Shown piece by piece: positions 25,368 to 30,995 of a stretch of 64,000 nucleotides of DNA (positions are counted from its first letter, which is position 1; each line of letters starts with the position of its first letter). This stretch comes from Candidatus Obscuribacterales bacterium (GTDB lineage: Bacteria > Cyanobacteriota > Vampirovibrionia > Obscuribacterales > Obscuribacteraceae): the NCBI GenBank assembly GCA_965228855.1, contig CBDDIJ010000003.1:3648001-3712000 (forward strand), written 5' to 3'. The translations under genes were made by a program, and so were the position numbers. The notes below the pieces were generated by a model. The model searched no databases. It was not told where the DNA came from and worked only from the letters and a program-made list of their open reading frames with translations.

Positions 25368-26741
25368 CTACACGATCAAAGATTTGATAAATAGCGGATC
25401 TCCAGCTTTGTCGGTCAACCGACCGTCGCGCATCAATCCGACGTCGACCATCCACGTCTCGAATTCGGGGGCTGGTTTCAACCGCAGCAACTGCCGCAGA
25501 GCAGCTATGTCGTGAAAGCTTGTCGTCTGGTACGACAACATCACATCATCTCCCATCGGCACGCCCATAAAATAGTTGACACCACCTGCGGTGAGCAAGA
25601 TCGCCAGGTTCTCCAGGTCATTCTGATCAGCGTCCATGTGGTTCGTGTAGCACGCGTCTATTCCCATCGGCACTCCAAGCAGCTTACCCATGAAGTGATC
25701 TTCCAGACCGGCTCGAATCATTTGTCGGCCGTCCGCAAGATATTCCGGTCCGATGAAGCCAACGACGTCGTTGACGAGGAAGGGATTGAAATGTCTTGCG
25801 AACGCATAGCAGCGTGCTTCCAATGTCAGCTGATCCGCTCCGTTATGAGAGCGCGAAGAAAGTTCCGACCCCTGACCGGTTTCGAAGTACATCACGGTCT
25901 TGCCTTTGTTCAAGCATTTCTTCTCACCCAGAGCCTTCGCTCTCGCGAGAGTTTCCAAATCGATACCGAATGCGGTATTGCCTTTTTGGCAGCCCGCGAT
26001 ACTCTGAAAAATCAATCCGGCTGGAGCGCCCATCTCGACAGCTTTTACTTGAGTCGTAACGTGGCTTAAAATGCAGTTCTGCGCAGGCAGGCCCAGTGAG
26101 TCGATTACTTTGTTAGTCGCCTCCAGCAGACGAGCGACAATGTCCGGCGTGTCGTAAGCAGGGTTGATACCAATGACCGCGTCACCGACGCCAAACGACA
26201 ACCCCTCGTACAAAGAAGCTAATATTCCGTCGACCGCGTCAGCCGGATGATTAGGCTGCAAACGAGCACCAAGCACGCTCTCGAGCCCCAGAGTGGTGTT
26301 AGCCGTCGCAACCACTCGCATTTTTTTCGAAGCAGAAACAAGGTCCAGATTCGACATAAGTTTGCAAACCGCCGATGCCATTTCACCGGTCAAACCTAAA
26401 CGAATGCCTGCAACACCGGCTCCATCAGGCGAGTCGGCAAGAATAAAATCTCGCAACTCGGCAACAGTCCAGCTCCGAATTTTTTCGAACTGCACCTCGT
26501 CTAGATTATCGTCGATGAACTTCGTGACTTCATCTTCGTCATGAGGCACGACCGGCTCACTTCGAAGCGCTTCCATTGTTATCTCGGCAAGCACTTCCTT
26601 CGCCGCTACTCGCTCACGATCAGAAGCCGCAGCAATACCTGCAAGCGCATCACCGGACTTCTCCTCATTGGCACGCGCCAAAACATCTTTGATGTCTCTG
26701 AAATCATACTTGTGGCCAGCGACAGTCTTGGCGTACGACAT
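25368..26741 (-). CDS. eutB: Ethanolamine ammonia-lyase large subunit
   Basis: Motifs KSGDALAGIAA, KLMSNLDL, RLQPNHP, GDAVIGINPA, MYFETGQGS, GFIGPEYL, EDHFMGKL, CYTNH. Confidence 0.97.
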   Translation of the reverse strand: MSYAKTVAGHKYDFRDIKDVLARANEEKSGDALAGIAAASDRERVAAKEVLAEITMEALRSEPVVPHDEDEVTKFIDDNLDEVQFEKIRSWTVAELRDFILADSPDGAGVAGIRLGLTGEMASAVCKLMSNLDLVSASKKMRVVATANTTLGLESVLGARLQPNHPADAVDGILASLYEGLSFGVGDAVIGINPAYDTPDIVARLLEATNKVIDSLGLPAQNCILSHVTTQVKAVEMGAPAGLIFQSIAGCQKGNTAFGIDLETLARAKALGEKKCLNKGKTVMYFETGQGSELSSRSHNGADQLTLEARCYAFARHFNPFLVNDVVGFIGPEYLADGRQMIRAGLEDHFMGKLLGVPMGIDACYTNHMDADQNDLENLAILLTAGGVNYFMGVPMGDDVMLSYQTTSFHDIAALRQLLRLKPAPEFETWMVDVGLMRDGRLTDKAGDPLFIKSLIV

Positions 26742-26845
26742 TCCACGGTCCTTCGCGCGGGGCGATCAAAAACGCGTTCTATAGTGTACCCTATGGTCTG
26801 TTGATTTCGAAGTACAAGTCTTTCCATCTCGGAAAACATACGAAG

Positions 26846-27583
26846 ATGACGCGAAGCAACGAAAAAGCGGAATTAGAATTGGCTGCGATGAAACAGTCTA
26901 CGCCTGCTCGAATTGCCGTTGGACGAGCAGGCGAGCGTCCGAAAACAACAACTTGGATAAGTTTCCGGCACGACCACGCGACGGCAAGGGATGCTGTACA
27001 TAGCGAGTTGAGCGACTCCTTCATTGAAAACTTCGCCCATGCAAACTCTTTTCCTGTAATTCAATCGCTGGTCGGAAGTAGACACGAATTTGTTCTCAAT
27101 CCCCCGATGGGAAAGAAAACTGACGAGCAAACGCTGGCGACTCTTTGCTCATCATGCCCATCTGACAACGACGTTCAAATCGTAATTTGCGATGGACTGT
27201 CGGCAATGGCAGTCGAGACCAACATAAAAGACCTGTTACCGATGATCGAAGATGGTTTGAAGATAGAAGGTATAACAGTCGGAACACCAATTATCGTTAG
27301 ATACGGTCGCGTCGCGATCGCGGATCAAATAAGCCACGCTCTGGGCGCGAAGCTCGCGATTAATCTGATTGGAGAAAGACCCGGTCTGTCTTCAGGCGCT
27401 GGGATGAGCGCATACCTCACTCTCAACCCAGGTCCGGAGACGATAAGCTCCGATCGGACCGTCGTTTCGAACATTCACAGTCGCGGCACGCCACCGGTTG
27501 AAGCCGGTGCCTATATCGTACATCTGGCAAAGACCATTCTTGAAAAGAAGGTATCCGGTGTCCAACTCCAGAAGCTGCTCTGA
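26846..27583 (+). CDS. eutC: Ethanolamine ammonia-lyase small subunit
   Basis: Motifs TPARIAVGRAG, HATARDAV, DVQIVICDGLSA, GRVAIAD, LIGERPGL, VVSNIH. ATG 26846 chosen as start. Confidence 0.95.
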   Translation: MTRSNEKAELELAAMKQSTPARIAVGRAGERPKTTTWISFRHDHATARDAVHSELSDSFIENFAHANSFPVIQSLVGSRHEFVLNPPMGKKTDEQTLATLCSSCPSDNDVQIVICDGLSAMAVETNIKDLLPMIEDGLKIEGITVGTPIIVRYGRVAIADQISHALGAKLAINLIGERPGLSSGAGMSAYLTLNPGPETISSDRTVVSNIHSRGTPPVEAGAYIVHLAKTILEKKVSGVQLQKLL

Positions 27584-29024
27584 TTCACAGCATTCTCTCA
27601 ACAGCCTTACGAGCGTCGGCATCGACATTGGCACAACATCGACGCATCTCGTTTTCAGCAAACTCCTATTAGCGAATGAGGCGGGCACCACACAAATTCC
27701 GCGCCTTACCATTCGAGAACGAAAAGTACTCTACGAAAGCCCGATCTTCTTAACGCCTTTACGGGAAGATGGCACCATCGACGGTGCCGGAGTTGCCGAG
27801 CTGCTTCGAGAAGAGTACAGAAAGTCAGGCTTCAGCCCGGAAGATATCAATTGCGGTGCGGTCATCGTTACGGGCGAAACAGCACTGCTGCGAAACGCGG
27901 AACAGGTGCTACACGAAATCTCTTCCCTGGCAGGCGATTTCGTCGCTGCCAGCGCCGGTCCGAACTTGGAAAGCGCGCTTGCCGGACGAGGCTCGGGGGC
28001 GATGCAACACTCGCTGAAAAATCGAAACACAATTTGCAACATCGACGTCGGAGGTGGCACGACAAACATAGCTATTTTTCACAACGGAGTATTACTGGAA
28101 ACAGCCTGTTTGCGCATAGGCGGGCGCTGTTTCCGATTCAACAGACAGGGCTTGAGTACAGGCGTTTCCCAGAGCGGACGAGAGCTGATTGAAAGTTTGT
28201 CGGTAAACGATGATTTTGAAAAACTTGGTCTGTTTGCGGCAAAGCTCATAATTGACTTTGTAACGAGCAAAACCTCTCTAAGTGAAGATGGTAATGGAAG
28301 CCACATCGGAAAATTTCTGATGACCCCACCGTTAAGATTCTTGAGAGAAGCTGATGAATACTGGCTCAGCGGCGGCGTAGCGGAGCTCGTCTCCTCGGAG
28401 AAGCTGGATCCGTATGTTTTCGAGGACTTTGGTTGGTTCCTCGCTCAGGGTTTAAAACAAATTCTCGACGCGAGAAAAGTAAACTATCGAGTCGCGGCAA
28501 ATCCGGTTCGTGCCACCGTACTTGGTGCAGGGAGTTACTCGGTTCAACTGTCAGGTAACACCGTCTGTATTAACACAGACAGACTGCCACTCAAAGGAAT
28601 TCCGATAACGCGGCCTTTTCAATCCATGCCGGCAAGCGATCTCAAGAACAGTGAAGCGGTTTCCGCTGCCATAAAAGCGGCAAGCTCAATCATGGAGTCG
28701 AGCGCGAGTGGCAAACCGGCTGCAATTGTTTTAGAACTTAAAGGCACTCCAGACTATGCCGCACTGAAAGCTTTAGCAGACGCACTGGCCGCTGCACTGG
28801 TTTCTACTCAGCTAGCAACTCCATATGTGTTAATCGTCGAAAGCGACACGGCGATGGCGCTTGGTCAACTTCTCAAAGGTCGGCTACCTCACCGGGACTT
28901 CGTAGTGCTTGATGGAATCGACTTCACGAGTGGAGACTATCTGGACATCGGAAAACCGCTTGCGGCTAGCACATCCATTCCTGTCACGGTCAAGAGCTTG
29001 ATTTTCGCCAACGAGCAGTTCTAG
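27558..29024 (+). CDS. eutA: Ethanolamine ammonia-lyase reactivating factor
   Basis: Motifs SVGIDIGTTSTHLVFS, GAVIVTGETA, AGDFVAASAGPNLES.LAGRGSGA, NIDVGGGTTN, GDYLDIGKP. GTG 27558 follows GAAGGT. Confidence 0.92.
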   Translation: MSNSRSCSDSQHSLNSLTSVGIDIGTTSTHLVFSKLLLANEAGTTQIPRLTIRERKVLYESPIFLTPLREDGTIDGAGVAELLREEYRKSGFSPEDINCGAVIVTGETALLRNAEQVLHEISSLAGDFVAASAGPNLESALAGRGSGAMQHSLKNRNTICNIDVGGGTTNIAIFHNGVLLETACLRIGGRCFRFNRQGLSTGVSQSGRELIESLSVNDDFEKLGLFAAKLIIDFVTSKTSLSEDGNGSHIGKFLMTPPLRFLREADEYWLSGGVAELVSSEKLDPYVFEDFGWFLAQGLKQILDARKVNYRVAANPVRATVLGAGSYSVQLSGNTVCINTDRLPLKGIPITRPFQSMPASDLKNSEAVSAAIKAASSIMESSASGKPAAIVLELKGTPDYAALKALADALAAALVSTQLATPYVLIVESDTAMALGQLLKGRLPHRDFVVLDGIDFTSGDYLDIGKPLAASTSIPVTVKSLIFANEQF

Positions 29025-30105: not shown

Positions 30106-30149
30106 GAAAGAAAAGCCTGAATTCAGCACGCAGGCGCGAATCCAGGCTT
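30106..30149 (-). terminator. Intrinsic terminator after the metallothionein-like gene
   Basis: On the minus strand AAGCCTGGATTC pairs with GAATTCAGGCTT (12 bp, one G-U) and is followed by TTCTTTC. Confidence 0.75.
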
Positions 30150-30179
30150 CTTAAAAATTAGATTTTTGTTGTCGAACGA

Positions 30180-30335
30180 TTAGGCGGCACACTCTTTGCA
30201 GCCGTTTTCACACGAGCAGCATTCGCAGCAGCAATCGCAATTCGCGCACTTGCCGCAACTTTTGTCGCTACATTTTGCGCAATTAGAGTCCTTACAACAA
30301 TCTTCTTTCTTACAGCACTCGTTCTTTTCGCTCAT
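30180..30335 (-). CDS. Metallothionein-like Cys-rich peptide, 51 aa (not in the ORF track)
   Basis: Hand translation MSEKNECCKKEDCCKDSNCAKCSDKSCGKCANCDCCCECCSCENGCKECAA*; 17 Cys, no His or aromatic residues; GAGGT RBS 5 nt before ATG; 31 nt downstream of the ArsR/SmtB gene; terminator follows. Confidence 0.85.
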   Translation of the reverse strand: MSEKNECCKKEDCCKDSNCAKCSDKSCGKCANCDCCCECCSCENGCKECAA

Positions 30336-30366
30336 TTTAAACCTCACTTGCAGTAAACAAAGCCGG

Positions 30367-30792
30367 TCACTCGCCTGGAGTAACCATGCTAACTATTCCG
30401 TCTCGACTACCCTCACTGTCACGAAGCAGGCACACTGCTTTATGCAACAGGTCGATTATGCAGGTGTCTATCACCTTGTAGTAGACATTCGTACCAACGC
30501 GACGGGTTGAAACAATTCCGCGGTCCGAAAGGCGCTGCAATTGATTTGATACAGCCTGCGGTTTCATGCCGAGAGATACGGCAAGGTCGCAAACGCACAT
30601 TTCTTTCGCTAAGGCCAGTGTGTGCAGAAGTTTCAGCCGAGTGTCATTGGCGAGGATTTTGAACAAGTCTTCCAATTCCGAAGCGTCTCTGTCAGAGAGG
30701 GGAGCTTCGTCTGGAAAGACAAATTCAGTTGGACAACATTGTTGCCGAACCTCACTCTTGTCTACGCTTGAACTGGTCACCTGATACTCCAT
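30367..30792 (-). CDS. ArsR/SmtB-family metalloregulator
   Basis: LFKILANDTRLKLL, EMCVCDLA, AVSNQLQRL, RRVGTNVYY; N-terminal CC. The start may be GTG 30780 behind GGAG. Confidence 0.92.
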   Translation of the reverse strand: MEYQVTSSSVDKSEVRQQCCPTEFVFPDEAPLSDRDASELEDLFKILANDTRLKLLHTLALAKEMCVCDLAVSLGMKPQAVSNQLQRLSDRGIVSTRRVGTNVYYKVIDTCIIDLLHKAVCLLRDSEGSRDGIVSMVTPGE

Positions 30793-30824
30793 TTATTTCG
30801 GGCAATTGAGTCACCAATTTCATT

Positions 30825-30844
30825 ATTACACCAGATCGTGTAAT
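30825..30844. promoter_or_regulatory. Candidate ArsR/SmtB operator
   Basis: Perfect inverted repeat ATTACAC-N6-GTGTAAT in the AT-rich region just upstream of the regulator gene. Confidence 0.6.
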
Positions 30845-30995
30845 TGTGTACATTAATTGTGGTTCCAGACACAGAACGTCCTATTTTATAGAACTGGAAA
30901 CCGTTTTCAGTTTCATTCCTGCTTATATTATGGGGTAGGCAAGCAGTTCTAAAACTTCCCTACACACAGGCTAATGACACCCATATCCATAGAAA

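Follow-up and report, generated by a model that had tools for sequence, protein, structure and literature searches.

A conserved, unannotated gene for a cysteine-rich peptide of 51 aa is located on the minus strand at 30180..30335 of the window (the whole analysed stretch of DNA, 64,000 nucleotides). Judging by its sequence and context, the product is most probably a metallothionein that relies on cysteine ligands only and is controlled by an AntR-derived repressor, its synthesis being switched on when a soft ion releases this repressor from the operator.

The metallothionein-like gene and its family

Translation of the 30335-30180 frame bears out the initial annotation: the peptide has 17 Cys along with 8 Lys, 6 Glu, 5 Ser and 4 Asp, and is devoid of His, Phe, Trp and Tyr. 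The family core reads C-x4/5-C-x2-C-x2-C-x-CCC-x-CC. Of the 81,533 frames in the whole genome that start with ATG and encode 25-120 aa, this one has the highest Cys fraction. With 33% Cys and Lys at 11.8% vs Arg at 0.5%, its composition agrees with the description of metallothioneins given in PMC1808422. The longest hydrophobic run is 3 residues, therefore no signal peptide is present. Small size, abundance of Cys, CC, CxC and CxxC motifs, scarcity of His and aromatic residues and cytoplasmic location, i.e., the sequence criteria of the metallothionein superfamily, are all found here. The AlphaFold model of the peptide has low confidence (pLDDT 58, pTM 0.28) with no fold visible.

A GAGGT ribosome-binding site (30341..30345, minus strand) is located 5 nt ahead of the ATG, and GGAG or GAGG occurs in all 31 of 31 homologous loci. 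The gene is separated from the stop codon of the co-oriented upstream regulator (30367) by 31 nt; both this gap and the ribosome-binding site had been pointed out before and are confirmed by the coordinates, while membership of the regulator in the ArsR/SmtB family follows from its match to NCBIfam NF033788 (84 bits). The intrinsic terminator claimed after the ORF also stands: at 30107..30151 of the minus strand, a hairpin (30151-30111, -24.6 kcal/mol) with a U-rich tail has a z of -3.5 and was equalled by 1 out of 200 shuffles. A hairpin with a U tract at or below -12 kcal/mol is found in 21 of 31 homologous loci vs 5% of 93 shuffles. The 30151-30111 hairpin is absent from the output of a simple terminator scan. 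Another hairpin, spanning the regulator stop codon (30364..30386, minus strand; one found by the terminator scan, 2.0 expected by chance), has a z of -1.3 and is not distinguishable from chance. Elsewhere in the window, at 25368-29024, transcription of eutB diverges from that of eutC-eutA, although these two lyase subunit genes, eutB and eutC, are usually co-transcribed.

A DNA pattern search with the core Cys arrangement, independent of the regulator, found it in 50 out of 103 other Obscuribacteraceae genomes. Among 297 other genomes of the class there was a single match, which turned out to be junk with no gene, and none was found in a phylum sample (0 out of 400). The reversed core, used as a control, gave no matches in all 401 genomes. 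The 49 family members are 39-53 aa long and contain 14-17 Cys (32.8% Cys), 11 of which are invariant across 36 aligned members. Uninterrupted Cys runs range from CCC to CCCCCC, with six consecutive Cys found in one subtype. His is absent from 39 and aromatic residues from 26 of the 49 members, which makes both absences trends within the family, not rules. Both Cys codons are in use (480 TGC, 285 TGT). Substitutions are distributed over the three codon positions as 52/32/197, i.e., 197 out of 281 affect third positions, and a pooled dN/dS of about 0.08, obtained over 15 close pairs that were hand-picked and are mutually non-independent, indicates purifying selection. Conservation of the ORF, on which the initial reading hinged, is evident from both this ratio and the spread of the core.

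A Cys-rich ORF immediately follows the orthologous regulator in all 7 same-genus genomes and in 3 other genera, and three more distant regulators have no Cys-rich ORF directly 3'. These loci overlap with the 80 best-matching GTDB regulator loci, in which the peptide is encoded directly 3' of the regulator in 31 of 34 loci of the Obscuribacterales clade vs none of 46 others. The search for Cys-rich ORFs behind orthologous regulators that had been suggested as a check has thus found them, and the architecture of the proposed operator-sensor-chelator-terminator unit is conserved. This proposal requires two amendments, since the sensor is AntR-type and 23 of the 56 pattern-found copies (one of the 23 sits at a contig end) have no regulator upstream, the rest being located after a full regulator (32 copies) or after its remnant (one copy). 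No AntR-type operator was found in 22 scored of these 23 copies, so AntR-type control is not universal in the peptide family.

In the locus with the remnant (L131:2581-2760), a shortened regulator lacking the operator precedes an intact peptide gene, which suggests that AntR-type control has been lost there. A set of standalone copies from one genus (L139-L141, L143, L145, L147, L151-L153) has a common promoter-like pair TCGACA ... TAAGAT and is located behind an OmpH-like gene; having neither an AntR-type operator nor a Fur/Zur-like box, these copies are possibly constitutive. A regulator and peptide pair on a contig titled Cryomorphaceae (Bacteroidota; L043) is nested inside the Obscuribacterales clade, its placement being a matter of mis-binning or transfer.

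At least 12 further members, all of already known subtypes, were found in metagenomes. The pattern scan yielded at least 119 metagenomic stretches and, with viral contigs included, 204 loci with 222 matches, 13 of which were kept by a script filter. One of the 13 (L194) was dropped as a frame of 32 aa opposite to a 328-codon frame. Among the matches listed, no retained member comes from the 85 viral stretches. The metagenomic members carry no taxonomic placement, and the family may extend beyond Obscuribacteraceae. None of 10 members searched for is present in a collection of 15 billion proteins.

The AntR-type regulator, its operator and a second box

The regulator gene occupies 30367..30792 on the minus strand (residues are numbered from the ATG at 30792). 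Its probable start is GTG 30780, preceded by a GGAG ribosome-binding site, while ATG 30792 has none. AntR is the best sequence match in PDB (6UVU, “AntR antimony-specific transcriptional repressor”; 46% identity, E 5e-31), ahead of Lmo1102 (E 1e-15), SmtB (E 2.5e-13) and CadC (E 1e-8). The same structure ranks first in fold comparison (Z 15.2, rmsd 2.6 over 111 residues) with CzrA tied within 1 Z, and the top three of 32 plasmid matches are annotated as antR. By-eye comparison shows agreement of the AntR chain with the antR1 insert from the supplement of PMC12641948.

The regulator has an N-terminal C19-C20 pair, C66-V-C68 in α3 and C111/C121 in α5. The latter two residues align with Cys103 and Cys113 of AntR (offset 8). 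In AntR, this α5 pair is reportedly the Sb(III) site. The regulators were collected with patterns including the α4 motif, which inflates the figure for their conservation. The α5 pair is kept in 80 out of the best 80 loci, and the α3 C-V-C, absent from AntR, is found in 33 of 34 clade regulators vs none of 46 others. The α5 DxHx10Hx2(H/E) site of SmtB and CzrA is not found in the regulator, where the aligned positions are D109-x-C111 and C121 and the His ligands are missing. Together, C19, C20, C66 and C68 reproduce the α3N layout of CadC and AztR and form a predicted site. A CxC combined with two N-terminal Cys is described as the Cd/Pb site of CadC, and an N-terminal CC with an α3 Cys, a set contained in the window regulator, as the As(III) site of CgArsR (PMC11672702). 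The regulator can be classified by these residues as AntR-type with an added CadC-like site, and not as SmtB-type. In a quick tree, from which L007 and L051 were left out and in which long branches meet, the peptide-linked regulators form one 34-row clade (SH-aLRT 99), the only grouping of the tree used here.

A palindrome upstream of the regulator had been noticed before and proved to be a perfect 7-6-7 repeat, ATTACAC-N6-GTGTAAT, at 30844-30825. This AntR-type operator (30825..30844) occupies the space between the -35 and -10 elements of a sigma-70-like promoter and also overlaps them, TACACA and TG-AATAAT separated by 17 nt (30822..30850, minus strand; 9 out of 12 consensus positions). The promoter scan gave 3 sites vs 1.5 expected, which is weak alone, and the position is conserved with the operator. 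The annotated antR promoter in L158 contains the same motif (ATTACAC-N6-ATGTAAT). The motif is present in the 84 upstream regions scored, a figure inflated by training of the matrix on the very sites it scores. In the genome under study the operator is a single site (43.5 bits vs 15.5 for the runner-up), therefore the predicted regulon consists of the window operon alone.

A second palindrome, a Fur/Zur-like box with a putative binding protein, is located at 30891..30913, about 40 nt upstream of the -35 element. Six standalone copies of the peptide gene from one other genus have this palindrome in common, 100-145 nt upstream. By a matrix derived from those six promoters alone, just two sites in the 8.2 Mb genome rank above the window box, the first in the promoter of a ZIP transporter gene and the second before a TonB-receptor-like gene; as the second matrix was trained on sites chosen by the first, there is some circularity in how the six standalone copies score, but none in the genome ranking. 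Among 32 other regulator-linked loci scored, one has the box (L021, the nearest relative). The box pattern was found before genes for His-rich MerC-like or TonB-receptor-like proteins in four out of five genomes probed, with the reversed control matching in two of the five and 3 of 9 loci read having no recognisable target. The genome encodes seven Fur family proteins, and none of the four tested is named Zur by NCBIfam.

These sites outline a Fur/Zur-like regulon in Obscuribacteraceae (G000 C2:674608, C3:294297 and C2:687196; L171-L182), which comprises genes for a ZIP transporter, TonB-receptor-like and His-rich MerC-like proteins, as well as a His-rich protein of 107 aa that matches nothing in Pfam (L170:3635-3958).

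Zur is described as an activator of the metallothionein gene bmtA in Synechococcus WH8102 (PMC9337993; see also PMC6103462), and by analogy the 30891-30913 palindrome looks like a Zur box positioned for activation. We give about even chances to a Fur family protein, probably Zur, adding zinc-dependent activation both here and in the one other genus.

There is a weak hint of transcription of the regulator-peptide unit: contigs of three metatranscriptome runs from three studies map to it on the regulator gene, and one RNA contig (30243-30539) bridges the regulator and the peptide gene. These contigs are unstranded, have a depth of 2.5-4 and come from runs found using the window itself, one of them (X1) being probably DNA. 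The flanking genes have no coverage in the three runs, which is not a sign of specific expression.

Mechanism and the likely ion

According to the proposed mechanism, a repressor dimer bound to the operator would block the two-gene operon's promoter. Thiophilic ions would bind to the α3N site (C19, C20, C66, C68), the α5 site (C111, C121) or both and release the repressor, allowing synthesis of the two-gene message and folding of the peptide around metal-thiolate clusters. At the thiolate to metal ratios typical of metallothioneins, 17 thiolates would hold about 5-6 ions. As for the main load, Cd, Zn, Pb or Hg(II) appears somewhat favoured, Sb(III), MAs(III) or As(III) may be considered with caution, Cu(I) or Ag(I) is unlikely, and a main load other than these ions is quite unlikely. 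A load of the Cd/Zn type is preferred in view of the gain of C-V-C, the CCC clusters, the Zur precedent and cadD found in L160; CCC clusters are described as a mark of Cd/Zn-type ciliate thioneins, and patterns consisting of CxC only as going with Cu (PMC1808422).

Neighbours of the related regulators provide hints about the ion. Within the fetched DNA of the 46 sister loci, an MtrA-DUF4346 gene was found in 16, hgcA in 10, ars-type genes in 8, a gene for an AntA-like ATPase in 2 and merT in 1; cadD and a DUF326 protein gene also adjoin sister regulators. Plasmid relatives are located before cadD and near arsM, and in L160 an AntR-type regulator precedes cadD. Such a mixture suggests that the AntR group tracks thiophilic ions broadly and picks out no single ion. 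The peptide is missing behind three clade regulators. One of the three (L052 / L387) heads an ars operon coding for a second ArsR, ArsI/CadI, ArsC, a product of unnamed function and YnfA, an arrangement that speaks for arsenic and not for Cd/Zn. The genome under study has its own acr3, arsC and a separate ArsR gene, the latter resembling that of the L052 ars operon. The AntR group is shown by these neighbours to be a broad regulator family using one operator and located before hgcA, ars, cadD, antCA and the peptide gene.

The gene most commonly found behind AntR-type regulators, coding for an MtrA-like and PterinBD-DUF4346 protein with a Cys-rich N-terminus (L055, L063, L066, L067, L069, L071-L076, L080, L087, L088, L090 and L097, with further loci L020, L389 and L393), is probably responsible for an uncharacterised metal(loid)-response enzyme. 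hgcA-like genes are located downstream of an AntR-type regulator and an ant-type operator in L057 (which passes the NCBIfam HgcA cut-off), L058, L060, L064, L065, L079, L083, L092, L093 and L098, and this pairing may constitute a second route to the control of mercury methylation. ArsR2, the hgcAB regulator of ND132, is described as having a Cys layout unlike that of the AntR-type group (bioRxiv 10.1101/2022.10.17.512643), and a response to arsenic like that of ArsR2 is accordingly not assumed for AntR-type regulators. Some AntR-type paralogues are divergent from, or close to, genes for DUF326-like Cys-rich proteins (L391:3590-3868, L394:111-386, L091:2090-2215), a second pairing with a possible metal store.

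A special case of our preferred explanation is an ant-type module in which AntC and AntA have been replaced by the peptide and which would be induced mainly by Sb(III), methylarsenite or As(III). We regard it as a tentative reading. The closest solved and annotated relative of the regulator is AntR, known to respond to Sb(III) and MAs(III) (PMC12665635), the α5 Cys pair and the operator are common to both, the N-terminal CC with an α3 Cys also corresponds to the CgArsR site, and ars-type, AntA-like and hgcA genes occur at sister loci in addition to the ars operon headed by L052. On the other hand, the clade has gained a fourth, CadC-like Cys missing in AntR, sister regulators are also found near cadD, merT, DUF326 and MtrA-DUF4346 genes, so the group is not metalloid-specific, arsenic resistance genes are already present elsewhere in the genome, and the Fur/Zur-like box ties the peptide family to divalent metal supply. 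It is a doubtful possibility that bacteria have here their first gene-encoded thionein for antimony and organoarsenic, from an undescribed metallothionein family with up to six Cys in succession, with an AntR-type sensor leading to a sequestering peptide instead of AntC-AntA and with an additional zinc input via Zur at the same promoter. As the unit is self-contained and about 800 bp long, the use of a thionein against Sb(III) or methylarsenite is directly testable in E. coli.

A Cu(I) or Ag(I) store similar to MymT and to BmtA controlled by BxmR is unlikely. The sequence is suitably His-poor and Cys-dense, BxmR, an α3N sensor, is described as answering Cu(I) and Ag(I) (PMC11672702), and the DUF326-like neighbours of AntR-type paralogues (two of the three matches are under the Pfam cut-off) could be taken in its favour, but the CC/CCC clustering is of the Cd/Zn kind by the ciliate standard, and inspection by eye rather than by a family scan noticed no CsoR- or CueR-like gene beside the 23 standalone copies. 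A small Fe-S or thiol/persulfide redox peptide, for which the repressor would act as a sensor of thiol stress, is more improbable still: CxxCxxCxxxC formally occurs three times in the peptide and persulfide or peroxide sensing via Cys pairs does occur in some ArsR proteins, but the ferredoxin form followed by Pro (CxxCxxCxxxCP) is missing in the window peptide and occurs in just one of the 49 members, none of 36 members matches Pfam, BigR/SqrR-type regulators score far below AntR, and it is metal(loid) genes that adjoin the sister regulators. The chance that the ORF is a spurious frame, for instance a Gln/Ala-rich gene read on its reverse strand or a repeat of TGC, is negligible. Artefacts of this kind prevail among the raw matches to the pattern in metagenomes and viral contigs, and a 104-codon frame does overlap the peptide ORF on the opposite strand; this explanation is refuted by selection acting in the peptide frame, with changes concentrated at third positions, both Cys codons in use, ribosome-binding sites at all homologous loci and conserved starts and terminators. 

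Relation to known metallothioneins and sensors

Even with E values as high as 10 allowed, none of 36 members matches a Pfam family, and PF02069 (BmtA) was found in none of 104 genomes of Obscuribacteraceae with a positive S. elongatus control. As HMMER is weak for short biased peptides, motif comparison was given equal weight, and a rough BmtA-type motif was found in none of 49 members. A search with a profile of the peptide alignment gave 69 candidates, none at E 0.001, with no matches in 1.84 billion representatives or in PDB sequences; these blanks are uninformative, since gene calling has missed the peptide genes and the profile suffers from shortness and bias. In ESM Atlas, matches were to unnamed clusters under 0.9 and to PF02067 at just 0.77 and 0.76, 0.9 being the lead level. 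The family-profile comparison is thus in line with the initial suggestion of a possibly undescribed bacterial family, and the comparisons support the view that the peptide fits no described bacterial metallothionein family. The label “eukaryote-style” holds for composition and CCC clusters only: this is a resemblance, and no homology to eukaryotic metallothioneins was detected in Pfam or PDB.

The logic of an ArsR family repressor combined with a metallothionein is already known. At the level of abstracts, the literature searched contained no account of the peptide family, of an AntR-controlled metallothionein or of the probable Zur input, which appear new in this sense; a candidate list in PMC7170490 may contain members, and four core motifs are absent from four supplementary files of PMC11705764.

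Comamonas testosteroni JL40's ant operon (antR-antC-antA) is the closest counterpart of the window operon as regards the regulator, with the same α4 recognition helix, α5 Cys pair and operator at 46% identity, and in both cases a small Cys-containing gene follows. In contrast to AntC (62 aa with 3 Cys; L158), which is described as feeding an efflux ATPase (PMC12641948), the window operon ends with the 17-Cys peptide, and its regulator has the extra α3 Cys. When the L158 proteins were used as tblastn queries, neither the chaperone gene antC nor the P1B-ATPase gene antA was found in any of the 34 clade loci, and there is no AntA-like gene within 3 kb. The α3 C-x-C with two N-terminal Cys is reminiscent of CadC, AztR and BxmR, the latter controlling the metallothionein BmtA in Oscillatoria brevis, but the similarity is below that to AntR, and the α5 site and the peptide family are different.

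The Fur/Zur-like box upstream of the -35 element, apparently shared with zinc uptake genes, parallels Zur-activated bmtA of Synechococcus WH8102 as described in PMC9337993. Here, unlike there, the box is only presumed to be that of Zur, coexists with an AntR-type operator and precedes a gene for a peptide other than BmtA.

The SmtB-SmtA/BmtA pair (PF02069) likewise combines an ArsR/SmtB repressor with an adjacent small Cys-rich gene, and derepression followed by sequestration is predicted for the window unit. The window sensor, however, has no DxHx10Hx2(H/E) site and is co-oriented with the peptide gene. BmtA is described as containing about 16% Cys, His ligands, aromatic residues and a zinc-finger fold (PMC13578184; PMC3323870; PMC12193353), whereas the window family has 33% Cys and CCC to CCCCCC runs with no PF02069 match, and the window peptide has neither the His ligands nor the Tyr of the BmtA zinc-finger core.

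MymT of mycobacteria is another small metallothionein from bacteria that does not belong to the BmtA family. It is described as copper-binding, and its similarity to the window peptide was assessed via Pfam and NCBIfam scans. MymT has about 7 Cys.

CC and CCC clusters, a strong excess of Lys over Arg and few His or aromatic residues are described for the Cd/Zn-type thioneins of Tetrahymena subfamily 7a (PMC1808422). Those are large, modular and eukaryotic proteins with no detected sequence homology to the window peptide, so convergence is the simpler reading. The natural CCC and CCCCCC proteins of the family become available for cluster chemistry. Characterised bacterial metallothioneins are few, namely the BmtA/SmtA type and MymT (PMC13578184; PMC12193353), and the family described here would constitute a third bacterial metallothionein sequence type, missed by gene callers and found in the non-photosynthetic sister group of cyanobacteria, within Obscuribacteraceae, a family lacking BmtA.
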